Shown piece after piece: positions 1,707 to 27,345 of a DNA stretch of 64,000 nucleotides. The stretch is from an uncultured Elusimicrobia bacterium (GTDB lineage Bacteria; Elusimicrobiota; Elusimicrobia; 2-01-FULL-59-12): contig OY969767.1 of NCBI GenBank assembly GCA_963702895.1, forward strand, positions 2,048,001-2,112,000, given 5' to 3'. The position numbers and the translations under genes are program-made. The notes beneath the pieces were generated by a model. The model was not told where the DNA came from, made no database searches, and saw only the letters and a program-made list of their open reading frames with translations. Position 1 is the first letter of the stretch. Each line of letters opens with the position of its first letter.

Positions 1707-2870
1707 CTACTTCGTGTCGGGATGGGTGTCCGGTTCGTTGTGTTTGAGCGCGGCTTTTCGGCGGGCCATTTCTTCATTGGCGGTGCGCCGGAGTCCTGAT
1801 TCCAGCTGTTTGAGGGACGTCCGGAGTGCTTCTTCTTCTCTTCGAAAACGGGCCGAGAGCTCCGCCTCACGCCTGGCCGCTTGCTGTTCCAACTCAAGGC
1901 GCTTGACCTCCAGCGCCCCTTCTTTTGCTTGCAGATCGGCCAAATACTTTTCGCGAAGGGCGGTTTCCTTTTCCTGAAAGAGAGTCTCAAGGGCCTTTTC
2001 TTTTTCGGCGCGCGCTGCCTCGAGACCCTGCAGTTTTTGTTCATACATGGACTGAAGTTCCAGCCGTTCCTGATGGAGCGACCCCAGGCGGGACTGGTAT
2101 TGCGCCTGCCATGTTGATTCGGTTTGCGCGCGCGCCTGCTCCATCTGCTTCCAGGCTTCTTCCTCGCGCGCGCGCCAGAGCGCTTCCAGCTCCTGCCGTT
2201 TGCGATGGAATTCTGTTTGCCATGTTTCTTCTCGCGCCGCTCGCTCCACCTCGGTGCGCTGCAGAGCATCTTTCAATTCTGTCTTCTCTTTAGCCCACTG
2301 CGCTTTGAGCTCCCGAACCTCTCGATCTTTTTCACTTTGAGCGACCTCGAGGGCTTCTTGGAGGGTATGCCTGGACCGCTCTAAGATGGAGATGATCTCC
2401 GACTGGGCCCTGTGCTCAAAGGCGATTTTTTCCTGCTCAAGCCTCTGCACATCGCGCTCTCGGTCATCATGCATCTCTTTGACCCTGGCCAGTTCCGCTT
2501 CCCTGAGCTCGCGCGCCTTTTGCCACTCTTGCAGAAGGGTTTGCAGTTTTGTGATCTGGGCTTGCCACTTCTCATGCTCTTCGGCCGCGATCTCCTGTCG
2601 CAGTTGCGAGGAGAGCTCGGACTTATACTCCTGAAGAAGCGTCTGACTCTCTTGCCAACGGTCGTGGATCTCGGAGAGGCGCTGTTCCATCGTTTCGACG
2701 CGCGCCTTCCAGGCTTTTTCGCGCACGACCAGTTCCTGATTCTCCGATTTGAGGCTGGTCATCATGTCCTGAAGGTTTCGTAAAGACGCGACGGCTCCGC
2801 GCAGGGCGAGCCTTGCCGTATCAAGGTCAGACACGTCGTGAGAAGAGGAGGGCTCTTCGCTAGCGCTCAT
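1707..2870 (-). CDS. Long coiled-coil protein, function unknown
   Basis: 387-aa E/Q/K/R/L-rich heptad sequence. Its start overlaps the stop of the upstream gene. Confidence 0.75.
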   Translation of the reverse strand: MSASEEPSSSHDVSDLDTARLALRGAVASLRNLQDMMTSLKSENQELVVREKAWKARVETMEQRLSEIHDRWQESQTLLQEYKSELSSQLRQEIAAEEHEKWQAQITKLQTLLQEWQKARELREAELARVKEMHDDRERDVQRLEQEKIAFEHRAQSEIISILERSRHTLQEALEVAQSEKDREVRELKAQWAKEKTELKDALQRTEVERAAREETWQTEFHRKRQELEALWRAREEEAWKQMEQARAQTESTWQAQYQSRLGSLHQERLELQSMYEQKLQGLEAARAEKEKALETLFQEKETALREKYLADLQAKEGALEVKRLELEQQAARREAELSARFRREEEALRTSLKQLESGLRRTANEEMARRKAALKHNEPDTHPDTK

Positions 2871-4813
2871 TAGAAATTTGCGGCGGGACGCAGTTGCCGT
2901 TGGAGGCGGGCCTTCTGCTTCTGCATGACCTTCTCGAACCGATCAATTTCACGCAACACCTTGGAGAGGGGCTCCAGTGTCCTGCCCTGTGCGATGTTAT
3001 GCCATGTTTCGAGCTTGTATTCATCCATCCCAATCAGAATCTCTTCGACCATCGCCAAAAGGGCCGGTGCCAGACCTGGGATCCGCCGCAAGAGAACCGC
3101 GGAGAGACGTCCCACCTCTGAGCCGACCTCCTCCTGCTGGGCGGCGGGACGAGGAACGACCGCTAAATCATGGAAGAGTGCCGCCAAGGCCATGGCATAA
3201 CGGTGCTCGGGTGAGGCACCGGCTTCCTCAGCGCCGGTCAGGGCCATCAAGACCGTCCGCGCGACATGGGCCGGGAGATTCCCGGGCTCCACGGACCTCG
3301 CGAGGTAGCGCGCGAGCACATCATGGCCCTCGGGTAGAAACTCACTCGACTCCTGCAAAAGCGGGCTGACCGATTCCAACACCCCTTCCGGCGCCTGCAG
3401 GGCAGGCGAGTAAAGAAGTTTGGCGACTTCCACCCATCGCTCATAGAGGGAGGCCGCCTTTTGCGTCAAGGGATCGGCAGGGAGCTCCGGCGTGACCACT
3501 TCGAGCGCGACCGCGCTCGGAGGCGGTTCCGGGACGGAGGACGCCGTTGGTTGAGCCGATGGGACTTTCCACAAGCCATCGAGAGGCAAAGGTTCGGAGA
3601 CGATCTTCTTCGACTTTTTGGCGCGCCTCATCACGACACCCAGAAGGGCCACCGCCAGAACGCCTCCGGCCAGAACAGGCCAGCCCTCCACCCGCCGGGG
3701 CCATGTCGGCTTCTGGAACGGACGCGCTAAGGTCCATAAGGATTTGGCTTGTTTCTCTTCCTTCGCCAGCGCCTCTGCGCGGCGGCCGAGGTAGCCCATC
3801 CAGACTTTGGTCTCATTGATCTGACGATCATAAATCGAGAGTTTCTCGGTCAATCGGGTGGATCGGCGCCCTGTTTTTCCAAGCAATTCTTTAATTTGTT
3901 GACCCAACTGAGCGATATCGGTGTGCGTCGGGTAATTTTCAATCAAGAGGTTCCTGCGGGCTTTTAAGGACTCAATTTGGGCGATGAGCTGCGCGTTCGG
4001 CGTGGTCGGGACGGGGCCCATGAGGAGCGCCTTGCGTTCAAGAGCAAGCTGCTTCAAATTTGTCTCGAGGTTCTGTTGCTGTTTCTGGAACGTTACCACC
4101 TTCTTGTGGAGGGCGTCCTTTTCTCGGGCCAGAGAAGACGCGATGACCGCTTGGACGACCCTGCTTAAGCGCTCCATCAGCTTGCCTGGCATGGACGCCG
4201 TGCCACGGACGAGTATCTGAGGCGGCTCGCCAGGGACCTTTTCGAGGGTCGCCTCCGCCAATGGAATGGAAGGGTCCGCACGAAGTTGTCCCACTTCTTC
4301 TTCCAGATTCTTGGGGTCCCCCCCATAAACGAGGGTGGCTTCTGATTCAAACCTCAACCGTGGAAGGCGCAGATATTGAGGTTTCAAGAAGGAGTGGAAA
4401 TCGATCGATTTTTTGGCGGGGGCCTGGGCTTGCGTGCGGGCCAACTCCAGCTTCTGGTTCAGTGCCGTGTATTCCGCTTCCAGTTGCGGCAGTTTCTCGA
4501 GCGCCGTGCGCATGGTGGCAATTTGCTCATCCAGGATTTTGATGTCCGGGTGCCCGTTGGGATAATGGCGAAGGAGCTGGTTTTTTCGTCCTTCAAGATC
4601 GATCATACGACCCGCGAGAGATCCGCCGGGACGCAGCTGCTTAATACGAACGATAAATTCTTGCTTTTGAGCGGAAAGGCGCTCGACTTCAGGGCTCGTC
4701 GCGGCTCGTGCATGGGCTTCCTTAATAATAAATGGGGAGTAGCTGGGCCACCACCGGACCCCAAGAATTCCGACGATCACCACCAGGACAACGAAAATTA
4801 GGATTTTCTTCAT
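2870..4813 (-). CDS. Wzz/GumC (polysaccharide co-polymerase)-like membrane protein with C-terminal degenerate HD-like domain
   Basis: N-terminal TM, coiled coils with YPNGHPDI and YPTHTDI motifs, Pro-rich segment before a second TM (WPVLAGGVLAVALLGVVM), then a cytoplasmic H...LAALFHDL segment. SD AGGAGG upstream. Confidence 0.6.
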   Translation of the reverse strand: MKKILIFVVLVVIVGILGVRWWPSYSPFIIKEAHARAATSPEVERLSAQKQEFIVRIKQLRPGGSLAGRMIDLEGRKNQLLRHYPNGHPDIKILDEQIATMRTALEKLPQLEAEYTALNQKLELARTQAQAPAKKSIDFHSFLKPQYLRLPRLRFESEATLVYGGDPKNLEEEVGQLRADPSIPLAEATLEKVPGEPPQILVRGTASMPGKLMERLSRVVQAVIASSLAREKDALHKKVVTFQKQQQNLETNLKQLALERKALLMGPVPTTPNAQLIAQIESLKARRNLLIENYPTHTDIAQLGQQIKELLGKTGRRSTRLTEKLSIYDRQINETKVWMGYLGRRAEALAKEEKQAKSLWTLARPFQKPTWPRRVEGWPVLAGGVLAVALLGVVMRRAKKSKKIVSEPLPLDGLWKVPSAQPTASSVPEPPPSAVALEVVTPELPADPLTQKAASLYERWVEVAKLLYSPALQAPEGVLESVSPLLQESSEFLPEGHDVLARYLARSVEPGNLPAHVARTVLMALTGAEEAGASPEHRYAMALAALFHDLAVVPRPAAQQEEVGSEVGRLSAVLLRRIPGLAPALLAMVEEILIGMDEYKLETWHNIAQGRTLEPLSKVLREIDRFEKVMQKQKARLQRQLRPAANF

Positions 4814-4828
4814 AAAACCTCCTGCCTT

Positions 4829-4858: not shown

Positions 4859-7171
4859 TTAATTTGCACTCTGAAGCTCTTCATCAAAGGTGGCCTCAAA
4901 CTCCTGATAAGCCAGCCTGCAATCGAGATTGGCCTGCTGGCAGCTGGCGAGGATTTTCTTTAACAGCTTGATGCGTTCGGCGATCGTAGCGCCTGCAGCG
5001 ACCTTGCGGGAGTACTGCAACAACGCCTTTTCATAGCGAATTTGCGACTCGGAGCGCATTTCTTGGGCCTTTTGGGCGGTCGGCGGTTTTGGCGCCACCT
5101 CGGGCACCGTGACGACTGGTTTTGGCGCAGGCGCTGCCTTCGCAGGACCTGCGGTTCGGATAGGTTCTGGCGGCTCATGCTCATAGCGGATCGCTTTGTT
5201 CACAATCCGTTGGAGGGACGCGATTCCATCATTCATCGACATCCCCTGTGCGGGCAAGGACCGCTGGTAGTTCCAGGCCAGGTGCAGCCAAGCCATGTAA
5301 CGCAAGTCCCGCGCGTCTTGGAGGTTCCAGGGACGATTCACCAGGATGTTTTCCAGATACTTCTCCAGGGTGCGCATCAGATAATTCACGCGCTCAGGCT
5401 CTGAGGCTTGGCGCGATCGCAAGTGCGCGTAATAATTCTTTGTGTTCTGCAGTTCATCTTCCAGGTCCATAAACTCCGTGAGTTCCTTCTGAGAGCTCTC
5501 GAAGTAGCTCTTCCAAAGATCGAACTGGGCCTCAAAAGCACCGACACGATGCGCGGACGGCGCCATGAGCAGCGAAGAAACACGCACCAGGAGCTCCTCG
5601 ATGTTTTTCACTTGGGGCACGGGCGACACTCCCAGCGGTCGCGCAGCCGTCAGAGGCACCTGAAGATCTTCCAAAGTCACCGTGGGTGTCGTGGTTGTTG
5701 GGTCCTCCATGATCCCCTTCATCGCTTTGTCCGAAGGCGGCTCTATCTTGGGCGCTTCTTTTGCGAGATGCCCGAGCATCATCTCTGCAGTGACCTGTTC
5801 TTCGGAAGGCGTTCCCGCTCCGGCGCTTGGAGGAATGATGACGATGACGGCAGATCCCGGCTGAGCGGATTTTTGGGCTTGAGCAATCAGCTTCGAAACG
5901 TCTGACACGGATTGAGGCGCCGCGGCTTTTGCCCCTGATGAACCGCGTTGGGGCTGTCCCTGGATCAGCTGTTCCATCTCATTCAGTTCCTGGGCATAGG
6001 CCGAAGACGGCGTCTTGCGAGGTTTTTGCGTCACAGACTTTGGCGTGGCTTTCTTTGCGACAAGTAATTCACCAAGCACGACTGACTCTTCTTTCTTGGG
6101 CTCTTCTTTTTTGGTCTCTTTTTGCCTTGCTTTCAGGATGGGCTGGGCCGGCGCCTCGGGCACACCAAAGCGATAGCTCATCGAGAACCGATGTGTCCCG
6201 GAGGTATCGCCCAGCGTGATGCCGCCCAGATTAAAGACGAACGTATAGTCAAAACCGAGGGCCCCCATCTCATAGCCGCCTCCGAGCGCAAGCTGACGAT
6301 ACTGGCGACTTCCGGCGGCCAAAGACCCGCGGACCGCGACGCGGTCCCCGCCGATCAAACTCCACTTGCGTTCCGCGGCACCGGTCGCGATCGTGTCGCT
6401 CTGGTTGGAGAGTGTTTGCCGTCTTTGCAGGGCACCGGCAAAGCTCAGGTAGCGATTGCGGGCGTAGGAGATGGCCAGTCTTGTCGTGCGCGGGACAATT
6501 TCATGATCAGCGCTTGAGAGCGCGATATTGGGCTCATTGATGTCCTGGAGCGAGAGCGCCAGCGTCGTCTTATCCGTCCACCGGTACAGGGCGCCCAGGT
6601 CCGCGGAGTAGGCGGTGTTCGAGTGGCCGTTTTGCGTGAAGAAGTCGGGCGTGCCGGATTGAACGTTGCCGTTGTTGTCGACGATGATCTGGGGCACGCC
6701 AAAGGAGTGATAAAGCTGCTTGAGGGCCCCGCCAATGGCAATCTTGGACGTCAGCCACTCCCCGTAGCCTAAGGAGAGCGTGCGCTCCTTATAGAGGTCG
6801 TCGAGCCCGAACTGTTTCCAACTTACGGCCAGCGTCCCACCCCAGGACACGGGCTGGCCGTAAGCCAGATAGGTCTGTGATAAATTGGAGCCGTCGGAGA
6901 GGCCCGCGAAGAGTTTCGCGTACTCGGACGTGACTTCTTTCTGCCGGACGCGGGCCAAGGCCGCCGGGTTGTAGGCGAGAGACAGCACGTCATCGCCCAT
7001 CACCACATAGGTGTCACCCAGCGCGGTGCCGCGGGCGCCCGTCCCCTTATCCTCAAACGCCGCGTGGACGGGTACGGCAAACAGCGTAAATAGTGAATAG
7101 AAAATAGGAAGCGCAAGCGCTTGAACTATTGACCATTTACCATTCACGATGTTTGCCTTTGCTGTCATCAT
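4859..7171 (-). CDS. Outer-membrane beta-barrel (PorV/FadL/UPF0164-like) with long Pro-rich linker and C-terminal helical region
   Basis: Signal peptide ending VHA, then GARGTALG...DDVLSLAYNPAAL (PorV/FadL-like N-terminal motif), amphipathic strands ending THRFSMSYRFG, and a ~430-aa extension. Confidence 0.7.
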   Translation of the reverse strand: MMTAKANIVNGKWSIVQALALPIFYSLFTLFAVPVHAAFEDKGTGARGTALGDTYVVMGDDVLSLAYNPAALARVRQKEVTSEYAKLFAGLSDGSNLSQTYLAYGQPVSWGGTLAVSWKQFGLDDLYKERTLSLGYGEWLTSKIAIGGALKQLYHSFGVPQIIVDNNGNVQSGTPDFFTQNGHSNTAYSADLGALYRWTDKTTLALSLQDINEPNIALSSADHEIVPRTTRLAISYARNRYLSFAGALQRRQTLSNQSDTIATGAAERKWSLIGGDRVAVRGSLAAGSRQYRQLALGGGYEMGALGFDYTFVFNLGGITLGDTSGTHRFSMSYRFGVPEAPAQPILKARQKETKKEEPKKEESVVLGELLVAKKATPKSVTQKPRKTPSSAYAQELNEMEQLIQGQPQRGSSGAKAAAPQSVSDVSKLIAQAQKSAQPGSAVIVIIPPSAGAGTPSEEQVTAEMMLGHLAKEAPKIEPPSDKAMKGIMEDPTTTTPTVTLEDLQVPLTAARPLGVSPVPQVKNIEELLVRVSSLLMAPSAHRVGAFEAQFDLWKSYFESSQKELTEFMDLEDELQNTKNYYAHLRSRQASEPERVNYLMRTLEKYLENILVNRPWNLQDARDLRYMAWLHLAWNYQRSLPAQGMSMNDGIASLQRIVNKAIRYEHEPPEPIRTAGPAKAAPAPKPVVTVPEVAPKPPTAQKAQEMRSESQIRYEKALLQYSRKVAAGATIAERIKLLKKILASCQQANLDCRLAYQEFEATFDEELQSAN

Positions 7172-9111
7172 CGGGCGACGACCACGGTTCCCGTGGCACT
7201 CTCCTTTCCGGCCTGGATCTTGTAGAGGTAGACGCCGCTCGGCACGACAGCGCCGTTTCCGTCTCTTCCATCCCAGACCAGGGAGTTGGAAGTCGGCGAG
7301 AGACTGCTGAAGGTGATGTCTCGGACCACGGCACCGCGGATGTCGTAAATCGTTCCGGTCACGGGGTCACCCGACGGGTTGTCGAAGAACCAGAAGACGC
7401 GGTTGTTCTGCGACGGATCGTTGGGCGTGATCACGCGCGGGTAAGGCGAGTTCTGTGAGAGTTTGAAGACGGTTCCAATTTGGGTGGCGCGGACCTGGTA
7501 GATTCCGATGTTCCGAACGCTCACGGCGATCTGCTGGGCCGAGGTCAGGACAGGATCGCTCAGCCGGATGTAAGCGGCGCCGTTGTACCAGTAGACCGAG
7601 ACGATTTGAGCGATCGAACCCGGGCCAGGGTCAAGAAATTTCGTGCGGTAGTGGCCAGTTCCTAAAATTGCTCCAAGGCCCAGCTGGACCTGCATGTCGT
7701 TTCGCGAGAAGGCGAAGTTCGGCAACGGCCTGCCGGACTGAGCCAAATAGGCTTCAACGCGGTAGGACCGCAGGGTGACATCCACTTCGTCCTGGGCTCG
7801 GCGCACAATGACCAGCTCAACATCCTCGCCATAGCCGTTGAACCCAGCGTTCAGTTCATGAAGGAGCGCCGCAGGGACCACCACGCGCGTTGTCGGATCA
7901 TCGGCGGCCACGACAATGCGGTTCTCAAGGGTGTCCACATAATCAGAGGCCGCCGATGTGAAGCCGCCCACACCAACAGCAAAGACGCGGTAGTAATAGG
8001 TCTGTGCCCCCACCGCCTCGGAGTAGCTCAAGGTGTCGGCCCCTAAGGTCCCTACGAGCGTCGGAGTGGATTCAATCGCGTCGTACCGGTAGACCGAATA
8101 GTGGTCAAGAGTGATCGGCAGGTAATCTGTCGCGAGGGTGACGGAACTCCAGCTCACGGTAAAGAGACCCCCCGCATTGGAAGCGACAAGTCCATTGGGC
8201 CGCAAGGGTGTCCGGATGATCTGCAGACGTTCGGCAACGACTTCTGAAGAGGGCGGGCTCTCCCAGGCCGTGCCAGGATAGGTCGGCGCCCCTCGATCAA
8301 GGGCCGTGATGATGTAGTAGTAGGAGGTCCCTAGGACAACCGAGTTGTCGCTATAAGAGGTCCCCGTTGACGAACTGAGCAGAACGTAGCCGGTCCCGCT
8401 CTCTGTGGACCGATAAATTTGGTAGGCATCAAAATCAGGCCCTTTCTGGACCGTAGTGAGGTCGGTCCAGGCAAGGTCAATGGACGAGAGAGTGCCGGTC
8501 GCGCTGAGCCCGCTCGGCGTTCCAGGCACCAGATCAACAGGACTCGCTTGGGCAACCCCAGCGATATCGGACCAGAAATCGAGCGAGACGCCCACATCAT
8601 CGGCGGAACGGACGGCGATGTAATACGTGGCCCCAGGGAACAGTGCCAAGGTGTGGTCGGACCCGGTGCCGGGTGGCCCCAAGGTCCTTGTGACGGCATC
8701 CCCTGGAGACTCTCCGTAAAATCCTTGGGCTGTGAAACCGCCAGCGGTATTCCACCAGGCGGTCGTGCTCCCGCCAACGCTGGCCAGTGAAATCGTTTGG
8801 ATCCTGACTTGGTAGGCCTCAAGCGTACTCCCGGGGAATACGGTCGGCGCTGTCCAATCAAGGCGTAGTTGTCCTTCAACGGCCACAGGCGTGGTCGAAA
8901 GGTCAACAATCGTGGCTGGAGGAACTCCAGCAAACGGCCTGACGCTCAGAGAGGCGTCAACGAATGAAGCGGCATAAACCGGTCCGGGCGGGCCGAGTAA
9001 ACACAAAGCTCCCCCGACGAGCACCAGGTGCCGTATCCAACGCGTTACACGCGCGATGAAATTGTTCTCGCTCGTAAGTGCTCCTTTAACTTCCTTCCAT
9101 AACTCCTCCAC
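7168..9111 (-). CDS. Secreted fibronectin type III repeat protein with C-terminal FlgD-Ig / gliding-motility-type sorting domain
   Basis: FN3 motifs (LDWTAP, YQIYRS...YSD...YYYIITALD). The C-terminus reads PRVITPND...WDGRDGNGAVVPSGVYLYKI...GTVVVAR. Start position uncertain. Confidence 0.75.
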   Translation of the reverse strand: MEELWKEVKGALTSENNFIARVTRWIRHLVLVGGALCLLGPPGPVYAASFVDASLSVRPFAGVPPATIVDLSTTPVAVEGQLRLDWTAPTVFPGSTLEAYQVRIQTISLASVGGSTTAWWNTAGGFTAQGFYGESPGDAVTRTLGPPGTGSDHTLALFPGATYYIAVRSADDVGVSLDFWSDIAGVAQASPVDLVPGTPSGLSATGTLSSIDLAWTDLTTVQKGPDFDAYQIYRSTESGTGYVLLSSSTGTSYSDNSVVLGTSYYYIITALDRGAPTYPGTAWESPPSSEVVAERLQIIRTPLRPNGLVASNAGGLFTVSWSSVTLATDYLPITLDHYSVYRYDAIESTPTLVGTLGADTLSYSEAVGAQTYYYRVFAVGVGGFTSAASDYVDTLENRIVVAADDPTTRVVVPAALLHELNAGFNGYGEDVELVIVRRAQDEVDVTLRSYRVEAYLAQSGRPLPNFAFSRNDMQVQLGLGAILGTGHYRTKFLDPGPGSIAQIVSVYWYNGAAYIRLSDPVLTSAQQIAVSVRNIGIYQVRATQIGTVFKLSQNSPYPRVITPNDPSQNNRVFWFFDNPSGDPVTGTIYDIRGAVVRDITFSSLSPTSNSLVWDGRDGNGAVVPSGVYLYKIQAGKESATGTVVVAR

Positions 9112-10645: not shown

Positions 10646-11212
10646 TTACAGTGCCGATCCAGTGAAGCGCACCGTGATTTCACGTGCGGTCTGCGCGCTG
10701 ACTGCGCTCGGCATCGCCAGCTTGAACCACAGGCTCACGTTCGGCGTCGCTCCGCCTGAAGTCGTGATGGTGGGATCTCCACCGCCCAAGCCCTTCAAGC
10801 CGTTGGCTCCGGTCCCGTTGAACAGGTGGTCCGCGTCAACGAAGTCCCCTGTCGCAGGGCGTGCCGCCGCTGTCGCCACGTAGAGCGCGTACTTGTTCAG
10901 CGCTACTGCCGGCGAGCCGATCGTCGCGGCCGTCCAGCCCGCGGGACTTGACTCGGTCTGGATGTTCTTCTGGACGGTCACGTCCACACTGCCCGAGTTC
11001 GACAGCGTGATGGCTGTCGCCGCCACAGACGACGTATTGACGGTGAGCGGCCCGTAGGCGTAGGTGGTCGGTGACAAGGTCAAGTCCACCGTCGCCACGG
11101 GTGTCACCGTGATCGTGCCGTCTACGGGGTTGGCGGCTTGCGCCGTCCCCAGTCCCAACAACCCAATGCCCAACATCCCAAGCACAACCTTCCATCTTGT
11201 TCTGGTGTTCAT
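10646..11212 (-). CDS. Secreted pilin-like subunit, copy 2
   Basis: Protein identical to copy 1. Confidence 0.75.
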   Translation of the reverse strand: MNTRTRWKVVLGMLGIGLLGLGTAQAANPVDGTITVTPVATVDLTLSPTTYAYGPLTVNTSSVAATAITLSNSGSVDVTVQKNIQTESSPAGWTAATIGSPAVALNKYALYVATAAARPATGDFVDADHLFNGTGANGLKGLGGGDPTITTSGGATPNVSLWFKLAMPSAVSAQTAREITVRFTGSAL

Positions 11213-19000: not shown

Positions 19001-22000
19001 AAACGTCACACCGCCGCTGGAGGTGTTCGAATCAATCAAGACCCAGAAGGGCAGGCCGGCATTCGTGATGGTTTGGGCCGAGGAGCCCGTCAGGGCCACG
19101 GTGCTCCGGTTGACCGTAAAGGCCCCGCTGTTGAGCTGCATGTCGCCGCCCAAATCCACCCGGTAGGAATTGGCGTTGGTGTTCATGGTCCCGCCGCTAA
19201 TCACAAAATCCCCGGAAATCGCGATATCGGAACCCAGCGTCCACACCATACTTCCCCCCAGCGTGAGGTTCCCCACAATGGGAGAGGTAAAGGTCGTGCA
19301 GGTCTTGGCGCCGCTGCCGCTAAAGGTCAGGTTGTAATACTGGGCGTTCTTACAGGTCTGAGCGCCCGCCAAGGCGTAGTTCACGGTGTTGGAGCTCGAC
19401 ACAAAGTCGACGGTCGTGACGGCCATGGCGTTGGTCGTGGCGCCGCTGGCGTTTAGGACAGAATCCAACCCTTGCGTCCAAGACCCGACACCGGTCAAGG
19501 TGCTCGAGGCGTTGACCGTGCCGTTGTTGATGACGGCTCCGGTGACCGTGACCACGCCGCTTGCTGTGAGACTCCCGTTGTTCGTTAGGGTTTTTGTGCC
19601 AGCGATGTTGATCGTGGCCGCCGAGATAACGCCGGCACTGTCATTAACAAAATCCTCGTTGATGGTGAGGGTCCCACCGACCGAGAGCGTTGCGACGCTA
19701 TTGGTATAGGCGGTGGAAAAAGTCGCATTGGTGATCGCAACGCTTGTTGCAGTGCCTGAGAGACTTCCCCCGCCCCCCACTTTGTTGAACGTCCAAAGCC
19801 CGGTATTGGACGTGATGCTGCCAGTCCCGTCCACCTGCAGGTCGCCGCTCACGCTTGTGGGCTCGGCGGCCGTGAAATTCACAAGCCCTCCGTTATTGAC
19901 CGTGATCGTGCCAAAGACAACCGAACCCAGTGTCGTGGTGACCGAGAGCGTGCCACTCACATCGACCGCTCCGAAATTCACAGCGGCGTTGTTGCCCTTG
20001 GTCACGGTGGTCCCATTGCCAACAGTCAGGGTGCCGGAAATGGTGCTGGCGGCACTTAGCGACCAGGACGCGGTCCCGCTTAAGGTAATGTTTTGAACAT
20101 TGTTGGCGCCCCCCACGAGAGCACATGTCTTGGCCCCACTATTGCCCAGCTCGAGCGTGTCATAGTTGGTCAGCCTACAGGTTTGTACTCCGGCGAAATT
20201 GTAGCGGACGGTGTTGCCACTGGCATTCGCTGTCAGCGTCGTGATTCCGGGCGTGCCGGTGAAGTTGAGGTTGAGCGTGCCGCCGGCGGCGTTGGTGAAG
20301 CCGCCGGTCCCGCTGAGCGCGGTGTTCACCGTGACGGTCCCTTGGTTGGTGAGGGTCGTCCCCGTGATCGTCAAGGTCGCCAGGTTGAGACTGGCGGTGT
20401 TGGTGTAGGCGGTGGTGAACGTGGGGCTGCCAAAGTCTGTGGCGCCCGCTGTGCCGCTGATGGTGCCCCCACCCACCTTGGCAAAGGCCGGCAGGAACGT
20501 CGTGGCGGCAGCGCCGGAGGTCGTACCGTTCATCACCAGATTTCCGTTGATATTGACCGTTTCAGCCGCTGTCACATTGAAATCACCATCCACGGTGAGT
20601 GTGTCGTTAAAGGTCTTGGAGCCGGTCGTGCTGGGAATCTGAAGCGTCCCGCCAGCATCCACTTGAACATCCACAAATATGGAAGTGCCTGTATCCGTGT
20701 TGAGTATTCCACCGTTTCCGATCGTCACGGTCTTATTAAACGTCTTGTTGCCCGTCGCGTTGGTGAGCGTCAAGGTCCCGTAGACATCGACGCTGCCGTT
20801 GGCGGTAAAGTCGAATCCGGCCGTGGTCAGTGTGCTGCCGCTGCGAACCGTAAGACTGGAGATCGTCACAGCCGCCGTGGGGACAGGCATGAAGGTGGCC
20901 GTGGACACGATCAACACGGAATCCTGGGACGTGGGATACCCCTCATCCCAGTTGGACCAGTTCCACCAGTTGGTGTCGACAGCTCCCCACCAGGTCCGGA
21001 TTTGTCCGGTGAGAAAACTCCAAAAGAAATTGTTCCCTGAATTGACGCTCGTGCCGTCATTGGCCACGATCGCTCTTCCCGAACGAGCGTCGGAATCCCG
21101 CACGTCCACATACACCCCGGAACTCGTCCCCGTATTGTTCAAATACCAGTTGGTGTCATCGATCGTAGACCTCAGCCAGATCTTTTTGCCGCTGGCACCT
21201 ACCAGAGACAGGGTCGTGATGGTAAAAGTTGAATTCGCATTAAAGTAGACCGTCGTTTCGTTCGCCAAGTCGGCGCGGTTGATCATGAGTTTGGTGGCGG
21301 TGAAGCTCGAAGCAAACGTCACACCGCCGCTGGAGGTGTTCGAATCAATCAAGACCCAGAAGGGCAGGCCGGCATTCGTGATGGTTTGGGCCGAGGAGCC
21401 CGTCAGGGCCACGGTGCTCCGGTTGACCGTAAAGGCCCCGCTGTTGAGCTGCATGTCGCCGCCCAAATCCACCCGGTAGGAATTGGCGTTGGTGTTCATG
21501 GTCCCGCCGCTAATCACAAAATCCCCGGAAATCGCGATATCGGAACCCAGCGTCCACACCATACTTCCCCCCAAGGTGAGGTTCCCCACAATGGGAGAGG
21601 TAAAGGTCGTGCAGGTCTTGGCGCCGCTGCCGCTAAAGGTCAGGTTGTAGTATTGGGCGTTCTTGCAGGTTTGCGCGCCCGCCAAGGCGTAGTTCACCGT
21701 GTTGGAACTCGACACAAAGTCGACGGTGGTGACGGCCATGGCGTTGGTCGTGGCGCCGCTGGCGTTTAGGACAGAATCCAACCCTTGCGTCCAAGACCCG
21801 CCGCCGGTCAAGGTGCTCGAGGCGTTGACCGTGCCGTTGTTCGTGACTGACCCTGTCACGGTGAAGACGCCCGGGGTGGTGAGCGTCCCGTTGTTGGTCA
21901 AGGTCATGCCGGCTGCTACGGTGAGCGTCGTGATGCTCATGGTACCGCTGAGCGCTTGATTGTTGGTGTTGAAGGTGGCCGTACCAGTGATGGCGATGCT

Positions 22001-25000
22001 TCCGGAAGTCCGGGTGAGGCCGCCTCGAAACACGATCCCGGTGCTGGCGCCGCTGAGCGTTCCGCCGCTCACCGTGACCAGTCCCGCGAAGAGTTTTGAG
22101 CCTGTGTCGCTGGTGAGCGATACCGTTCCCCCTGAGAGCGTCGAAGCCCCTGTCACCCAGAACTGAAACGCGCCGGTGGTGAGCGTGCCGCCGGAAGCAA
22201 GAATCCCGCCATTGACCGTTACGGATGAGCCCAGCGTCCAGGCGGCGGTCCCGCCCATTTCGATATTCCCTAAGATCGGAGACGTAAAGGTGGTGCAAGT
22301 CTTGACGCCGCTGCCTCCGAAGGCGAGGTTGTAGTACTGGATATTCCTGCAGGTCTGGATGCCGGCGAAATTGTAGCGGACGGTGTTGCCACTGGCATTC
22401 GCTGTCAGCGTCGTGATTCCGGGCGTGCCGGTGAAGTTGAGGTTGAGCGTGCCGCCGGCGGCGTTGGTGAACCCACCTGTTCCGTTGAGCGCGGTGTTGA
22501 CCGTAATCGTGCCTTGGTTGGTGAGCGTGGTTCCCGTAATCGTCAAGGTGGCCAGGTTGAGACTGGCGGTGTTCGTGTAGGCGGTGGTGAACGTGGGGCT
22601 GCCAAAGTCTGTGGCGCCCGCTGTGCCGCTGATGGTGCCCCCACCCACCTTGGCAAAGGCCGGCAGGAACGTCGTGTCGGCAGCGCCGGAGGTCGTGCCG
22701 TTCATCACCAGATCAGCATTGATCGCGACCGTTTCAGCCGCCGTCACATTCAAGTCGCCATCCACGGTGAGTGTGCCGTTAAAGGTCTTGGAGCCGGTGG
22801 TGTTGGAGATTCGCAGCACTCCGCCGCTATTGACCGTAACCGCATCATTAAAAACAACGGTGCCGGTGTCGGTGTTGAGTATTCCACCGTTTCCGACCGT
22901 CACGGTCCCATTAAACGTTTTGTTGCCCGTCGCGTTGGTGAGGGTCAAGGTCCCCGAAAGAGACGTGGGACCGTAGACCGTGAAATTGTACCCTGCAGTG
23001 GTTAATGATCCCGTGATCGTAAGGCCGGCCATGGAGAGGTGGCTGGTCGGCACGGGCATCACCAAGGCCGTTGACACAATCAGCACGTAATCATCCGTAC
23101 TGGGAACACCCGATTCCCAGTTCGAAGGGTTCCACCAATTGGTATCGACCGTCCCCCACCAGGTTCGTGTTTGCCCCCCGCTACCGAAATACCAGTTATA
23201 GTTGTTCCCTGAATTCTGGCTGCCTCCGTCATTGGCTTGTATGATAGACCCGGCGCGGGCATCGGAGTCCCGCACGTCGACATACGTGATGGAATTCGTC
23301 CCCGTATTATTCAAATACCAGTTGGTGTCATCGACTGTAGACCGGAGCCATATCTTTTTGCCGCTGGCGCCTGCCAGAGACAGGGTCGTGATGGTAAAAG
23401 TTGAATTCGCATTAAAGTAGACCGTCGTTTCGTTCGCCAAGTCGGCGCGGTTGATCATGAGTTTGGTGGCGGTGAAGCTCGAAGCAAACGTCACACCGCC
23501 GCTGGAGGTGTTCGAATCAATCAAGACCCAGAAGGGCAGGCCGGCATTCGTGATGGTTTGGGCCGAGGAGCCCGTCAGGGCCACGGTACTCCGGTTGACC
23601 GTAAAGGCCCCGCTGTTGAGCTGCATGTCGCCGCCCAAATCCACCCGGTAGGAATTGGCGTTGGTGTTCATGGTCCCACCGCTAATGATGAAATCACCGT
23701 CAATCGCGATATCGGAACCCAGCGTCCACACCATACTTCCCCCCAGCGTGAGGTTCCCCACAATGGGAGAGGTAAAGGTGGTGCAGGTCTTAGTACCGCT
23801 GCCAGTCATACGGAGGTTGTAATATTGAGCGTTCTTGCACGTTTGGTTGCCGCCCAGGGCATAGTTCACCGTGTTGGAACTGGCGGAGAAATTGACGGTG
23901 GTCACCGCCATGGCGTTGGTCGTGGCGCCGCTGGCGTTCAGGACAGAATCCAACCCTTGCGTCCAAGACCCGCCGCCGGTCAAGGTGCTCGAGGCGTTGA
24001 CCGTGCCGTTGTTCGTCACAGACCCCGTCACCGTGAAGACGCCCGGGGTCGTGAGCGTCCCGTTGTTGGTGAGCGTGATGCCGGCTGCTACGGTGAGCGT
24101 CGTGATGCTCATGGTACCGCTGAGCGCTTGGTTGTTCGTGTTGAAGGTGGCCGTACCAGTGATGGCGACGCTTCCGGAAGTCCGGGTGAGGCCGCCGCGA
24201 AAGACGATCAGGGCGCTGGCGCCGCTCAGCGTCCCTCCACTCACTGTAACCAAGCCGACCATGACTTTCGACCCTGTGTCGCTGGTGAGCGATACCGTTC
24301 CCCCTGAGAGTGTCGAAGCCCCTGTCACCCAGAACTGAAACGCGCCGGTGGTGAGCGTGCCGCCGGAGGCAAGAATCCCGCCATTGACCGTCACCGAAGA
24401 AGCTAAGGTCCAGGCGGCGGTCCCTCCCATTTCGATATTCCCTAAGATCGGTGAGGTAAAGGTGGTGCAGGTCTTAGTACCGCTGCCAGTCATACGGAGG
24501 TTGTAATATTGAGCGTTCTTGCACGTTTGGTTGCCGCCCAGGGCATAGTTCACCGTGTTGGAACTGGCGGAGAAATTGACGGTGGTCACCGCCATGGCGT
24601 TGGTCGTGGCGCCGCTGGCGTTCAGGACAGAATCCAACCCTTGCGTCCAAGACCCGCCGCCGGTCAAGGTGCTCGAGGTGTTGACCGTGCCGTTGTTCGT
24701 CACAGACCCCGTCACCGTGAAGACGCCCGGGGTCGTGAGCGTCCCGTTGTTGGTGAGCGTGATGCCGGCTGCTACGGTGAGCGTCGTGATGCTCATGGTA
24801 CCGCTGAGCGCTTGGTTGTTCGTGTTGAAGGTCGCCGTGCCGGTGATCGACACGCTCCCCGAAGTCCGGGTGAGGCCGCCCCGAAAGACGATCGCTGTGC
24901 TGGCGCCGCTCAATGTGCCGCCGCTCACCGTGACCAGTCCCGCGAAGAGTTTTGAGCCTGTGTCGCTGGTGAGCGATACCGTTCCCCCTGAGAGCGTCGA

Positions 25001-27310
25001 AGCCCCTGTCACCCAGAACTGAAACGCGCCGGTGGTGAGCGTGCCGCCGGAGGCAAGAATCCCGCCATTGACCGTCACCGAAGAAGCTAAGGTCCAGGCG
25101 GCGGTCCCTCCCATTTCGATATTCCCTAAGATCGGTGAGGTAAAGGTGGTGCAGGTCTTAGTACCGCTGCCAGTCATACGGAGGTTGTAATATTGAGCGT
25201 TCTTGCACGTTTGGTTGCCGCCCAGGGCATAGTTCACCGTGTTGGAACTGGCGGAGAAATTGACGGTGGTCACCGCCATGGCGTTGGTCGTGGCGCCGCT
25301 GGCGTTCAGGACAGAATCCAACCCTTGCGTCCAAGACCCGCCGCCGGTCAAGGTGCTCGAGGCGTTGACCGTGCCGTTGTTCGTCACAGACCCCGTCACC
25401 GTGAAGACGCCCGGGGTCGTGAGCGTCCCGTTGTTGGTGAGCGTGATGCCGGCTGCTACGGTGAGCGTCGTGATGCTCATGGTACCGCTGAGCGCTTGGT
25501 TGTTCGTGTTGAAGGTGGCCGTACCAGTGATGGCGACGCTTCCGGAAGTCCGGGTGAGGCCGCCCCGAAAGACGATCGCTGTGCTGGCGCCGCTCAATGT
25601 GCCGCCGCTCACCGTGACCAGTCCCGCGAAGAGTTTTGAGCCTGTGTCGCTGGTGAGCGATACCGTTCCCCCTGAGAGCGTCGAAGCCCCTGTCACCCAG
25701 AACTGAAACGCGCCGGTGGTGAGCGTGCCGCCGGAGGCAAGAATCCCGCCATTGACCGTCACCGAAGAAGCTAAGGTCCAGGCGGCGGTCCCTCCCATTT
25801 CGATATTCCCTAAGATCGGTGAGGTAAAGGTGGTGCAGGTCTTAGTACCGCTGCCAGTCATACGGAGGTTGTAATATTGAGCGTTCTTGCACGTTTGGTT
25901 GCCGCCCAGGGCATAGTTCACCGTGTTGGAACTGGCGGAGAAATTGACGGTGGTCACCGCCATGGCGTTGGTCGTGGCGCCGCTGGCGTTCAGGACAGAA
26001 TCCAACCCTTGCGTCCAAGACCCGCCGCCGGTCAAGGTGCTCGAGGCGTTGACCGTGCCGTTGTTCGTCACAGACCCCGTCACCGTGAAGACGCCCGGGG
26101 TCGTGAGCGTCCCGTTGTTGGTGAGCGTGATGCCGGCTGCTACGGTGAGCGTCGTGATGCTCATGGTACCGCTGAGCGCTTGGTTGTTCGTGTTGAAGGT
26201 CGCCGTGCCGGTGATCGACACGCTCCCCGAAGTCCGGGTGAGGCCGCCCCGAAAGACGATCGCTGTGCTGGCGCCGCTCAGCGTCCCTCCACTCACTGTA
26301 ACCAAGCCGACCATGACTTTCGACCCTGTGTCGCTGGTGAGCGATACCGTTCCCCCTGAGAGCGTCGAAGCCCCTGTCACCCAGAACTGAAACGCGCCGG
26401 TGGTGAGCGTGCCGCCGGAGGCAAGAATCCCGCCATTGACCGTCACCGAAGAAGCTAAGGTCCAGGCGGCGGTCCCTCCCATTTCGATATTCCCTAAGAT
26501 CGGTGAGGTAAAGGTGGTGCAGGTCTTAGTACCGCTGCCAGTCATACGGAGGTTGTAATACTGAGCGTTCTTGCACGTTTGGTTGCCGCCCAGGGCATAG
26601 TTCACCGTGTTGGAACTGGCGGAGAAATTGACGGTGGTCACCGCCATGGCGTTGGTCGTGGCGCCGCTGGCGTTCAAAATGGAATTGGCTCCTTGGTTCC
26701 ACGTGCCAGCTCCCGTCAGTGTCCCCAGGGTTGACGCGGTGCCGTTATTGGTCATAGTGCCGGTCACGGTCATGGTGCCGGCCACCGAGATCGTCCCGTT
26801 ATTCGTCACCGTCCCAGCCGATATCGTAAGCGCTCCCGCAAAAGAGAGGTTCGCCGTGCCCTGAATGGTTTTGTTGTTGGTTAAGGTGGTCAGGCCGGTG
26901 AGGGTGTTGGATCCAGTTCCGTCAATCGTCGTCCCGGCGCCCGTGAGCGTGAGGGCACCGCCACCGCTGTTGGTGCCGTTGTTGGTGTAATTGCCGGTGC
27001 CTGTCAGAGTGAATGTGTTATTGATGGTGAGTATCCCCCCATTGTTAATGGTGATCGCTGTAACAGCTTGAGCGGGGGTGGCGGTCACCGTGACGGTATG
27101 GCCATTGGCAACGGTCATACTGTCGGCCGTTCCGGGAAAATCAACTCCTTGCGTGCAGGCCGCCGCGCAGGCGCCGCCCCACGTCGTGCCGATATTGAAA
27201 TTCCCGGACTGCGATGAAGTGAAAGCGGCTGCCTGGGCGGGAGTCTGCATGAGAAAAAATGCAGCCGCACTAGCACCGCAAAGGAGCGCTAATCTTTGAA
27301 TCCGTAACAT
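16094..27310 (-). CDS. Giant (3738 aa) repetitive beta-helix-type adhesin with C-terminal pilin-like domain
   Basis: Signal peptide AQA|A, T/G/N/S/V-rich repeats, W-rich WWxxSNW motifs. The last ~144 aa align with the tandem subunits. Confidence 0.85.
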   Translation of the reverse strand: MLRIQRLALLCGASAAAFFLMQTPAQAAAFTSSQSGNFNIGTTWGGACAAACTQGVDFPGTADSMTVANGHTVTVTATPAQAVTAITINNGGILTINNTFTLTGTGNYTNNGTNSGGGALTLTGAGTTIDGTGSNTLTGLTTLTNNKTIQGTANLSFAGALTISAGTVTNNGTISVAGTMTVTGTMTNNGTASTLGTLTGAGTWNQGANSILNASGATTNAMAVTTVNFSASSNTVNYALGGNQTCKNAQYYNLRMTGSGTKTCTTFTSPILGNIEMGGTAAWTLASSVTVNGGILASGGTLTTGAFQFWVTGASTLSGGTVSLTSDTGSKVMVGLVTVSGGTLSGASTAIVFRGGLTRTSGSVSITGTATFNTNNQALSGTMSITTLTVAAGITLTNNGTLTTPGVFTVTGSVTNNGTVNASSTLTGGGSWTQGLDSVLNASGATTNAMAVTTVNFSASSNTVNYALGGNQTCKNAQYYNLRMTGSGTKTCTTFTSPILGNIEMGGTAAWTLASSVTVNGGILASGGTLTTGAFQFWVTGASTLSGGTVSLTSDTGSKLFAGLVTVSGGTLSGASTAIVFRGGLTRTSGSVAITGTATFNTNNQALSGTMSITTLTVAAGITLTNNGTLTTPGVFTVTGSVTNNGTVNASSTLTGGGSWTQGLDSVLNASGATTNAMAVTTVNFSASSNTVNYALGGNQTCKNAQYYNLRMTGSGTKTCTTFTSPILGNIEMGGTAAWTLASSVTVNGGILASGGTLTTGAFQFWVTGASTLSGGTVSLTSDTGSKLFAGLVTVSGGTLSGASTAIVFRGGLTRTSGSVSITGTATFNTNNQALSGTMSITTLTVAAGITLTNNGTLTTPGVFTVTGSVTNNGTVNTSSTLTGGGSWTQGLDSVLNASGATTNAMAVTTVNFSASSNTVNYALGGNQTCKNAQYYNLRMTGSGTKTCTTFTSPILGNIEMGGTAAWTLASSVTVNGGILASGGTLTTGAFQFWVTGASTLSGGTVSLTSDTGSKVMVGLVTVSGGTLSGASALIVFRGGLTRTSGSVAITGTATFNTNNQALSGTMSITTLTVAAGITLTNNGTLTTPGVFTVTGSVTNNGTVNASSTLTGGGSWTQGLDSVLNASGATTNAMAVTTVNFSASSNTVNYALGGNQTCKNAQYYNLRMTGSGTKTCTTFTSPIVGNLTLGGSMVWTLGSDIAIDGDFIISGGTMNTNANSYRVDLGGDMQLNSGAFTVNRSTVALTGSSAQTITNAGLPFWVLIDSNTSSGGVTFASSFTATKLMINRADLANETTVYFNANSTFTITTLSLAGASGKKIWLRSTVDDTNWYLNNTGTNSITYVDVRDSDARAGSIIQANDGGSQNSGNNYNWYFGSGGQTRTWWGTVDTNWWNPSNWESGVPSTDDYVLIVSTALVMPVPTSHLSMAGLTITGSLTTAGYNFTVYGPTSLSGTLTLTNATGNKTFNGTVTVGNGGILNTDTGTVVFNDAVTVNSGGVLRISNTTGSKTFNGTLTVDGDLNVTAAETVAINADLVMNGTTSGAADTTFLPAFAKVGGGTISGTAGATDFGSPTFTTAYTNTASLNLATLTITGTTLTNQGTITVNTALNGTGGFTNAAGGTLNLNFTGTPGITTLTANASGNTVRYNFAGIQTCRNIQYYNLAFGGSGVKTCTTFTSPILGNIEMGGTAAWTLGSSVTVNGGILASGGTLTTGAFQFWVTGASTLSGGTVSLTSDTGSKLFAGLVTVSGGTLSGASTGIVFRGGLTRTSGSIAITGTATFNTNNQALSGTMSITTLTVAAGMTLTNNGTLTTPGVFTVTGSVTNNGTVNASSTLTGGGSWTQGLDSVLNASGATTNAMAVTTVDFVSSSNTVNYALAGAQTCKNAQYYNLTFSGSGAKTCTTFTSPIVGNLTLGGSMVWTLGSDIAISGDFVISGGTMNTNANSYRVDLGGDMQLNSGAFTVNRSTVALTGSSAQTITNAGLPFWVLIDSNTSSGGVTFASSFTATKLMINRADLANETTVYFNANSTFTITTLSLVGASGKKIWLRSTIDDTNWYLNNTGTSSGVYVDVRDSDARSGRAIVANDGTSVNSGNNFFWSFLTGQIRTWWGAVDTNWWNWSNWDEGYPTSQDSVLIVSTATFMPVPTAAVTISSLTVRSGSTLTTAGFDFTANGSVDVYGTLTLTNATGNKTFNKTVTIGNGGILNTDTGTSIFVDVQVDAGGTLQIPSTTGSKTFNDTLTVDGDFNVTAAETVNINGNLVMNGTTSGAAATTFLPAFAKVGGGTISGTAGATDFGSPTFTTAYTNTASLNLATLTITGTTLTNQGTVTVNTALSGTGGFTNAAGGTLNLNFTGTPGITTLTANASGNTVRYNFAGVQTCRLTNYDTLELGNSGAKTCALVGGANNVQNITLSGTASWSLSAASTISGTLTVGNGTTVTKGNNAAVNFGAVDVSGTLSVTTTLGSVVFGTITVNNGGLVNFTAAEPTSVSGDLQVDGTGSITSNTGLWTFNKVGGGGSLSGTATSVAITNATFSTAYTNSVATLSVGGTLTINEDFVNDSAGVISAATINIAGTKTLTNNGSLTASGVVTVTGAVINNGTVNASSTLTGVGSWTQGLDSVLNASGATTNAMAVTTVDFVSSSNTVNYALAGAQTCKNAQYYNLTFSGSGAKTCTTFTSPIVGNLTLGGSMVWTLGSDIAISGDFVISGGTMNTNANSYRVDLGGDMQLNSGAFTVNRSTVALTGSSAQTITNAGLPFWVLIDSNTSSGGVTFASSFTATKLMINRADLANETTVYFNANSTFTITTLSLVGASGKKIWLRSTIDDTNWYLNNTGTSSGVYVDVRDSDARSGRAIVANDGTSVNSGNNFFWSFLTGQIRTWWGAVDTNWWNWSNWDEGYPTSQDSVLIVSTATFMPVPTAAVTISSLTVRSGSTLTTAGFDFTANGSVDVYGTLTLTNATGNKTFNKTVTIGNGGILNTDTGTSIFVDVQVDAGGTLQIPSTTGSKTFNDTLTVDGDFNVTAAETVNINGNLVMNGTTSGAAATTFLPAFAKVGGGTISGTAGATDFGSPTFTTAYTNTASLNLATLTITGTTLTNQGTITVNTALNGTGGFTNAAGGTLNLNFTGTPGITTLTANASGNTVRYNFAGIQTCRNIQYYNLAFGGSGVKTCTTFTSPILGNIEMGGTAAWTLGSSVTVNGGILASGGTLTTGAFQFWVTGASTLSGGTVSLTSDTGSKLFAGLVTVSGGTLSGASTGIVFRGGLTRTSGSIAITGTATFNTNNQALSGTMSITTLTVAAGMTLTNNGTLTTPGVFTVTGSVTNNGTVNASSTLTGGGSWTQGLDSVLNASGATTNAMAVTTVDFVSSSNTVNYALAGAQTCKNAQYYNLTFSGSGAKTCTTFTSPIVGNLTLGGSMVWTLGSDIAIDGDFIISGGTMNTNANSYRVDLGGDMQLNSGAFTVNRSTVALTGSSAQTITNAGLPFWVLIDSNTSSGGVTFASSFTATKLTVDGAGLASATTVYFNAHSTFTIANLVLRGSSGNTVWIRPTPPDQMWYLNNTSTNTVSYVDVAYSSASAGVVIAAGPDSIDSENNTNWTFVILSLSLSPSSYDFGSVPVASTVVSGSAIAVTNTGNVAETFSLSITTSGPTTVWGVGTALPTSRNTFAMFGKFNSVQPLSDIFSSTDIIISTPTASTPGIYGANQTGVSVPVSASRNLWLRLDTPPTTSTTNQQQMILTVTATAP
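23770..26680. repeat. Intragenic tandem repeat, 684-bp (228-aa) unit, >4 copies
   Basis: Shadow ORFs recur at 23871, 24555, 25239, 25923 and 26607. Boundaries approximate. Confidence 0.92.
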
Positions 27311-27316
27311 CGATCA

Positions 27317-27345
27317 AGCCTAGGGGGAATTGATCGATATTTCAA
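27317..27345 (-). promoter_or_regulatory. Putative promoter TTGAAA-N17-TAGGCT; likely leaderless adhesin mRNA
   Basis: The -10 box ends 6 nt before the ATG at 27310. No SD. AT-rich upstream. Confidence 0.6.

Follow-up and report, generated by a model that had tools for sequence, protein, structure and literature searches.

How could a bacterium with two membranes build a donor-strand fibre and hold it on its surface without an usher? An usher is generally taken to be required for donor-strand fibres in diderm bacteria; fibres of this kind that do without one are known from monoderms and archaea. The question is raised by a gene cluster of an uncultured Elusimicrobia bacterium (assembly GCA_963702895.1, contig OY969767.1), which occupies positions 1707 to 27310 of the 64,000-nucleotide stretch analysed here, positions 2,048,001 to 2,112,000 of the contig (hereafter the window). 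The source genome is complete, a single contig of 2.72 Mb with 98% completeness, and its relatives are metagenome-assembled genomes of Elusimicrobiota. An initial annotation of the window had suggested an undescribed usher-less fibre system with a giant tip adhesin, amplified subunits, chaperones, a PorV-like barrel and a switch acting at the RNA level. The analysis reported here leads to a reading that I regard as probable: the cluster encodes a new donor-strand fibre, assembled with the help of chaperones and without an usher, that is held in place by a PorV-like barrel paired with a C-terminal domain (CTD) of the kind used in type IX secretion systems (T9SS).

Every element on the initial parts list is present, and all the genes lie in the same orientation on the minus strand, to which the coordinates below refer unless stated otherwise. 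In the order of transcription they are a gene for a 3738-residue repeat protein (27310-16094), a small Ig-like gene, a REC-ANTAR gene (15574-14930), a structured leader of 200 nucleotides, a gene for a 431-residue PapD-like protein (14727-13432), six subunit genes (13416-9263), a gene for a protein with fibronectin type III (FN3) domains and a CTD (9111-7168), a barrel gene (7171-4859) and two further genes (4813-1707).

An N-terminal extension shared by subunits and the candidate base protein

The six homologous secreted proteins of about 187 residues noticed initially are paralogues of 186-188 residues. Searched with profile A1, which was built from 44 members of the subunit family, the complete genome contains exactly these six subunits and the C-terminus of the 3738-residue protein. 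That the giant protein ends in the subunit domain, as had been proposed, is borne out by BLASTP (E = 2e-7, 24% identity) and by the profile (E = 4.8e-14); the domain, residues ~3595-3738 (16097..16528), is aligned to profile positions 40-183 only.

What the domain of the giant protein lacks is a conserved extension of about 13 residues, which in the free-standing members directly follows a signal peptide ending in A-x-A, with no cysteine. Over the 44 aligned sequences, this extension shows no change at T34, T36 and P37 and hardly any at I33 and V35, and distant members retain a version of it. In the first subunit, s1, it comprises residues 26-39 (13300..13341), the candidate donor strand. In members of the adhesin type, that is, long proteins with the domain at their C-terminus, the alignment does not begin before profile position ~40, where the domain has its first strand, and there is no free extension; what lies upstream of their acceptor domain is the last strand of the preceding domain. 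The FN3/CTD protein presents the reverse arrangement: the motif (residues 48-61; 8929..8970) directly follows the signal peptide, the first FN3-type domain comes after it, and there is no subunit domain, an arrangement that its orthologues share. The motif, written D[GA][ST][IL][ST]V.P, is found in seven of the 6480 six-frame open reading frames (ORFs) of at least 100 residues in the genome, namely the six subunits and the base protein, and in none of the residue-shuffled ORFs used as control; since it was derived from these very sequences, only its absence elsewhere is informative. Judged from sequence, the three classes (acceptor only, donor and acceptor, donor only) are the pattern of donor-strand polymers.

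The extension varies among lineages and the version carried by the base protein varies with it, several locus-specific variants being nearly identical in the subunit and its cognate base. This relation was scored as the best 9-mer BLOSUM62 value between the subunit and base extensions in 20 non-redundant loci; only loci in which both N-termini could be located were counted, and duplicate records (L026, L027, L042 and L005-L007) and the second halves of split loci (L018 and L020) were left out. The mean was 28.65 for cognate and 18.07 for non-cognate pairs, and none of 100000 permutations reached the cognate mean. The cognate base ranked first in nine of the loci and third or better in 14. With ten representatives the means were 27.3 and 17.4, the cognate base came first in five cases and 16 of 100000 permutations attained the cognate mean; a set of 11 loci gave 27.45 and 17.02, with 12 of 720 permutations for six lineages. 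What appears to be new is this modular distribution of one extension over tip, shaft and base, co-varying within loci.

The subunit family

Subunit gene s1 (12853..13416; 187 residues, major type) is followed by s2 (12154..12720), s3 (11400..11966), s4 (10646..11212) and s5 (9892..10458), each encoding 188 residues, and by the diverged s6 (9263..9823; 186 residues). The DNA of s1 to s5 is 90-100% identical, with s4 and s5 the same, and s6 is about 65% identical to these five; its orthologue is the last subunit gene of a close locus, L001 (82% amino acid identity). The 187-nucleotide spacers between the amplified genes (10459-10645, 11213-11399 and 11967-12153) are nearly identical too, and are strongly structured (-78.1 kcal/mol, z = -3.26) without a U-run terminator.

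The family has 51 close relatives and, in a library of 1.84 billion proteins, 644 cluster representatives at E <= 1e-3. Most members have about 180 residues and a minority are long, with the domain at the C-terminus. One member of 302 residues, P0103, joins Sigma70_r2 to a subunit-like domain and could represent either a genuine fusion or an error of gene calling. No consistent Pfam family emerged from the 44 profile members at E <= 10, the single matches, at noise level, being SCPU (E = 0.19), Peptidase_M73 (0.11) and Enas (4.6). Nothing meaningful was found by the A1 profile among PDB sequences; a subunit query of the ESM Atlas returned Elusimicrobiota clusters, with WxL only as a lead (0.84), and the subunits gave weak NCBIfam matches to choice_anch_D (E from 5.6e-5 to 9.4e-4, below cut-off).

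The AlphaFold2 (AF2) model of the subunit monomer (pLDDT 89.1, pTM 0.78) is a beta-sandwich from residue 43 on, and residues 27-42 contain no DSSP strand. When this model was submitted to Foldseek, as the initial annotation had advised, the top PDB matches were almost all donor-strand fibres, though weak: the TasA fibre, cannulae, TLP-1, CS20, CfaB and Pyrobaculum bundling pili, and also Fim, Pap, Csu and CupE subunits. VIA alignment of the model extended over 134-143 residues to TLP-1b and the cannulae.

Conservation of the gene neighbourhood

A conserved neighbourhood, another of the checks proposed at the outset, was found. The genes for the subunit, the two-domain PapD-like protein, the FN3/CTD protein and the PorV-like barrel are adjacent and co-oriented in all seven distant loci (from six genomes), with adhesin-type genes nearby, and the three close loci L001-L003 retain the gene order of the window. 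In each of the seven distant loci the PapD-like gene adjoins the subunit genes, and it is better conserved than they are. The A1 profile has matches in 68 of 401 sampled Elusimicrobiota genomes and in 48 of 123 genera; it has none in the 118 genomes of one family (f2) or in the 89 of another (f16).

A scan anchored on the PapD-like family yielded 39 loci, most of them from Elusimicrobiota. Poribacteria and FCPU426 contributed a few, and Planctomycetota, Omnitrophota and Methylomirabilis gave partial matches. Thirteen of 35 further loci had all four core profiles; many of the remaining ones end at contig ends or at the limits of the 6-kb flanks, or may hold parts too divergent for narrow HMMs. 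One Poribacteria locus (L044) has a chaperone-like gene with subunit and adhesin-type genes, and two FCPU426 loci (L051 and L057) have one with CTD and PorV-like genes. The loci outside Elusimicrobiota suggest a wider range or horizontal spread.

PapD-like proteins

The two Ig-like proteins, taken for paralogues from the start, align with each other at E = 8e-16 and 29% identity, the smaller corresponding to the first domain of the 431-residue protein (A2 profile, E = 3.5e-18). An ATG at 16097 overlaps the TGA of the giant gene (ATGA). The small protein most likely starts there, rather than occupying the extent 15621-16178 first assigned to it; it would then have 158 residues (15621..16097), as against 185 if a TTG start at 16178 is used. 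A small paralogue also follows an adhesin-type gene in L002, L022, L028, L029, L033 and L050.

In the 431-residue chaperone-like protein (13432..14727), a weak Rrf2-like winged helix-turn-helix (wHTH; residues 5-83, 21.5 bits with Pfam Rrf2, below cut-off) is followed by a single hydrophobic segment and, at residues ~150-431, by two PapD-like Ig domains. Such an architecture could represent a membrane-bound regulator joined to a chaperone-like module. The longer form with the wHTH (residues 1-84, window 14476-14727) occurs in three of 35 family members, two of which have PF02082 on record. Most members are about 309 residues long, 32 of the 35 falling between about 266 and 357, and for most of them identity is 51-85%. 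The family is without a Pfam match, and the A2 profile matches no PDB sequence. The AF2 model of the periplasmic part (pLDDT 87.5) has two Ig-like domains, and Foldseek, again as advised, retrieved with it the chaperones FimC, CsuC, Caf1M, SafB and SfaE of chaperone-usher systems at E-values from 4e-8 to 3e-7.

The giant protein and other candidate tips

The giant tip-adhesin candidate (16094..27310; 3738 residues) has a signal peptide and about ten copies of a 228-residue repeat rich in T, G, S and N, arranged in higher-order repeats; a script found offsets of 228, 456, 684, 724, 771 and 1495 residues. TRF reported nothing on these repeats, whose periods exceed 500, and blastp of the protein against itself returned the identity match alone. 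No Pfam family has a passing stretch in the protein; a stretch within the repeats matches WxLIP_PGBD at a sub-threshold 22.6 bits. The near-identity of some repeats points to recent expansion and could make the assembly uncertain here. In 22 family members scanned, the N-termini of those of adhesin type include mannanase GBD, LamG, CBM11 and FN3 modules.

Candidate base protein, barrel and the outer-membrane side

The base or anchor candidate (7168..9111; 647 residues) had been described as an FN3/FlgD-CTD protein, which agrees with a FlgD_ig match at E = 1.5e-8, a weak fn3 match and a TIGR04183 type A CTD at 27.1 bits (cut-off 23). The T9SS type A-like CTD spans residues 561-645 (7177..7431). 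Four nucleotides of the base-gene end overlap the start of the gene for the barrel protein (4859..7171; 770 residues, barrel at residues ~43-335). The earlier naming of this barrel as PorV-like is backed by a full-length alignment to PorV_fam (E = 1.7e-12), and weakened by a score of 47.6 bits against a curated cut-off of 90. The protein continues into a C-terminal extension of ~430 residues, in which a low-complexity linker precedes a region for which the ESM Atlas offered no usable match. Orthologues in the seven distant loci all align full-length to PorV_fam, one of them above cut-off. Between the base and PorV-like genes, many distant loci have an additional small ORF (~130-160 residues; for example L021:2417-2893, L023:5046-5444 and L024:7013-7453) that matches the base protein in its CTD part alone; the window has none.

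The initial remark that no usher is visible can be extended to the complete genome, in which neither PF00577 nor PapD_N (PF00345) has a match, the E. coli controls being positive for both. The genome has 12 PorV-family places, of which nine exceed the cut-off; type A CTD proteins that exceed theirs number 19. In three cases, this locus included, the gene directly preceding a PorV-family gene encodes a CTD protein. Thirteen of the 19 CTD proteins are encoded within one stretch of ~47 kb outside the window (G000:C1 2185285-2232100). GldL and GldM found no match in the genome, which is weak evidence, as control genomes gave none either, and PorU was matched only through its C-terminal CTD part. 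A SprA/Sov-like protein of 1811 residues is encoded elsewhere (L063:4973-10408 = G000:C1:1185972-1191407) and reaches 170.9 bits (cut-off 200); its gene sits near one for an M6-like metalloprotease bearing a CTD. Proteins of this kind, of ~1800 residues, occur in 352 of the 401 Elusimicrobiota genomes, none over cut-off, and being near-universal in the phylum they say nothing specific about this locus. Taken as a whole, this looks like a set of T9SS-like sorting parts that lacks the known motor and belongs to a phylum other than Bacteroidota. There are also four secretins elsewhere in the genome.

FadL-type 14-strand barrels are narrow, and PorV binds CTDs. This narrowness makes the PorV-like barrel, by analogy, more plausibly an anchor for the base CTD than an export conduit. 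One study points the same way, with type B CTD proteins reported to be anchored by their cognate PorP-like barrels (PMC9143113). Of the different outer-membrane route foreseen initially, anchoring through the CTD/PorV-like pair is the more plausible part, and export through the barrel the less plausible one.

Regulation, downstream genes and flanks

The REC-ANTAR response regulator (14930..15574) has Pfam matches to Response_reg (E = 6.3e-22) and ANTAR (E = 4.5e-20). Targets of ANTAR proteins have two hexaloop hairpins, with A at position 1 and G at position 4, the second of which competes with a terminator. The leader between this gene and the chaperone-like gene (14728..14929; 200 nucleotides) folds at -79.5 kcal/mol (z = -4.07). 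It can form a 7-bp hairpin and, as an alternative, a second 7-bp hairpin that draws on some of the same bases as the 5' arm of a long terminator-like stem, behind which a U-run stands. The loops have five nucleotides (AAGAA and AUGGG) and are not canonical ANTAR hexaloops, and Rfam gave no match at E <= 1 over window positions 1-32000. The leader of L002, the single other one compared, has a comparable hairpin, long stem and U-run, and among the fetched loci only L002 has an orthologue of the ANTAR gene. Of the RNA-level switch first proposed there remain, then, the REC-ANTAR gene and a terminator-type leader, with non-canonical loops and counterparts in the closest relatives only; antitermination control confined to this lineage is plausible but weakly supported.

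The two last genes encode a 647-residue protein with two hydrophobic segments and a coiled-coil-like character (2870..4813) and a coiled-coil-like protein of 387 residues without a signal peptide (1707..2870). Neither has a Pfam or NCBIfam match. Both have orthologues in L001, and the 387-residue protein also matches part of an ORF of L002; neither was found in the seven distant loci. Their membership is doubtful, and they are probably not core parts of the system in which they had been included; with the ANTAR gene they are treated as lineage-specific additions. Upstream, the cluster is flanked by genes for TldD and a GAF histidine kinase, and downstream by a divergent gene for a patatin-like phospholipase (13-1524, plus strand), the N-terminal region of which weakly resembles a tyrosine-autokinase or ParA-type domain (TIGR03018, 18.6 bits).

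Discussion

The initial interpretation is upheld in part. The parts list, the absence of an usher, the PapD-like model of the two-domain protein, the neighbourhood, the distribution of the extension and, weakly, the Foldseek matches of the subunit speak for it; the ANTAR switch, the membership of the 1707-4813 genes and the role of the barrel as an export pore do not.

The pathway would run as follows. All components would be exported by the Sec route, judging from their typical signal peptides. The mature subunit, of ~160 residues, would be an Ig-like (PapD/ASH-like) domain preceded by the amphipathic extension of ~13 residues. That extension would slot into the domain of the next subunit along and so give a linear polymer, donor-strand complementation being the most likely link within the fibre on the sequences at hand. 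The giant protein, with an acceptor domain and no extension, could cap one end only, as the tip adhesin; the FN3/CTD protein, with the extension and no acceptor domain, could end the fibre only at its base. Its CTD would be held by the PorV-family barrel encoded directly downstream, tethering the fibre to the outer membrane. In the periplasm the two-domain PapD-like protein would cap and prime subunits. Its one-domain paralogue, whose gene is coupled in translation to that of the adhesin, would do likewise for the acceptor domain of the adhesin. Five near-identical subunit genes would provide shaft dosage and, in this lineage, the REC-ANTAR protein probably controls terminator read-through ahead of the chaperone and subunit genes.

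Several results weigh against this pathway. The Foldseek matches of the subunit to fibres have E-values of 1.1e-3 or worse and TM scores of 0.44 or lower. A Foldseek-independent aligner places a complete ASH/PapD-like domain, 6fvi, first (Z = 8.1, rmsd 2.4 over 98 residues) and gives fibre subunits Z values of 6-7.4, a range that it calls common background. Because of this ranking the model suggests that the subunit fold is PapD/ASH-like Ig, and the resemblance to fibres is suggestive, not decisive. The matches of the chaperone-like model to chaperone-usher chaperones have TM scores of 0.25-0.31, and hydin and ciliary ASH arrays match it better (E from 1e-11 to 1e-8). The barrel stays below its curated PorV_fam cut-off, and the base CTD is over cut-off in the window protein and in only three of ten orthologues from other loci. 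In 11 of the 20 loci scored the top match is a base other than the cognate one, the compared segments include a few signal-peptide residues, and gene conversion or binding to a common recognition partner could also explain the co-variation. Finally, no outer-membrane conduit for the subunits was identified, the usher search of the complete genome being empty.

In a first alternative the subunits would never polymerize. They would be monomeric Ig-like surface proteins of the choice-of-anchor-D/HYDIN type, and their motif would serve as a tag for sorting or recognition, with the PapD-like protein or a machine for export or attachment as its reader. The choice_anch_D matches, weak and below cut-off, agree with this, as does the best structural match to a complete ASH domain, and two client N-termini that bind one receptor would also co-vary. 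A sorting tag, however, would leave the adhesin-type members unsorted, as these have the same domain and signal peptides without the tag; strand exchange, by contrast, predicts the complementary distribution of domain only, tag with domain and tag only, and the five-fold amplification of one subunit gene fits the major subunit of a polymer. Monomeric tagged proteins are for these reasons unlikely. A polymer might also form by itself, as a chaperone-free matrix fibre of the TasA, cannula or archaeal bundling-pilus kind; the PapD-like proteins would then be, for example, a membrane sensor or regulator, and the CTD and barrel a separate T9SS-like cargo pair. The top Foldseek matches and the long VIA alignments speak for such a fibre, and so do the weak Rrf2-like N-terminus of the 431-residue protein and its two relatives with PF02082. 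I consider it quite improbable: a PapD-like gene better conserved than the subunits stands beside them in every distant locus, the wHTH is absent from most copies, the base shares the subunit extension and co-varies in it, which ties the base to the fibre, and Peptidase_M73 appears in only one of the 44 members, at E = 0.11. There is, lastly, very little to commend the locus as an ordinary T9SS adhesin cluster like SprB/SprF of gliding Bacteroidota, with the giant and FN3 proteins as cargo, the barrel as a PorP/PorV-type partner and the small proteins as lectin-like accessories. A CTD over cut-off next to a PorV-family-like barrel would suit it, as would the other CTD proteins, PorV-family places and SprA-like protein of the genome; but the giant protein ends in a subunit-like domain and has no CTD, GldL and GldM are unmatched (a weak point, since the controls were silent), PorU is matched through its CTD part only, and SprA-like proteins, below cut-off, are also present in families without the locus.

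The chaperone-assisted donor-strand fibre anchored by CTD and barrel is thus the reading I retain. More tentatively, and with rather less confidence, it might be placed as a third, independently evolved chaperone-assisted donor-strand pilus pathway, the first usher-free one in diderms, whose donor-strand base docks via a T9SS-type CTD into a dedicated PorV-family barrel. If so, there would be another solution to the assembly and anchoring of a fibre across two membranes, and T9SS-style sorting and anchoring parts would be linked to pilus biogenesis in a phylum without the canonical T9SS motor, with a bearing on the roles of PorV-family paralogues and CTDs outside Bacteroidota. A single acceptor domain would take interchangeable modular tips, the longest of several thousand residues, and two unannotated protein families would gain a function. 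As the tips carry CBM, LamG or mannan-binding modules, the system would also give a testable handle on the attachment of the largely uncultured Elusimicrobiota to surfaces and polysaccharides.

Comparison with known systems

No paper linking Elusimicrobia or PorV to donor-strand fibres was found in the literature library searched. Among papers retrieved on Elusimicrobiota and type IX secretion none looked relevant by its title or the start of its abstract, one of them (PMC7031533) having the term in its reference list only.

With chaperone-usher pili (Fim, Pap, Csu and Caf1) the system shares a diderm host, a two-domain protein, modelled as PapD-like, encoded beside the subunit genes, an N-terminal extension on the subunit and a tip adhesin with a C-terminal pilin-type domain. 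It differs in having no usher and no PapD_N sequence match, and in its base, a large FN3/CTD protein in place of a pilin-like terminator. TasA fibres, archaeal bundling pili, threads and cannulae, the best Foldseek matches of the subunit, are likewise usher-less donor-strand fibres; they are not known to have a PapD-like chaperone gene, modular tip adhesins or a CTD/barrel pair, and no sequence relation to the subunits was found, Peptidase_M73 giving only the single match noted above. Type V pili of Bacteroidota have subunits made as lipoproteins with a lipobox cysteine, whereas the signal peptides here have none and end in A-x-A.

On the outer-membrane side, the nearest likeness is to the PorP/type B arrangement of T9SS, where a CTD protein is encoded beside a FadL-type barrel of the PorV/PorQ/PorP superfamily; this suggests non-covalent surface anchorage. 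Here the CTD is type A-like, the barrel is divergent and has its long extension, and the CTD protein bears a pilin-like N-terminal extension in a genome without a match to GldL, GldM or full PorU.

In its overall design the system can be set beside the Elr/WxL pilus of Enterococcus faecalis, which is composed, according to a 2026 preprint, of the tip ElrA, the pilin ElrD with an N-terminal donor strand, the base ElrB and the chaperone ElrE, and is there described as confined to Bacillota (10.64898/2026.10.17.759780). The Pfam family WxL (PF13731) has no match at E <= 0.01 in the window proteins and none at E <= 10 among the 44 profile members, and neither Ig-like protein matches DUF916 or DUF3324. 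With the roles proposed above, both systems would have a pilin made of an N-terminal donor strand and an Ig-like acceptor domain, tips made of a variable payload and a C-terminal acceptor without a donor strand, a base with a donor strand, no acceptor and the envelope anchor, and a dedicated chaperone outside the chaperone-usher family that resembles chaperone-usher chaperones in Foldseek, with no usher. They differ in host, here a diderm of another phylum; in the anchor, a T9SS-type CTD with a PorV-like barrel here and LPXTG with sortase there; and in the chaperone, most copies of which look soluble and periplasmic here and which has a C-terminal helix anchor there. The resemblance, read from sequences and gene content, is one of logic, not of homology.

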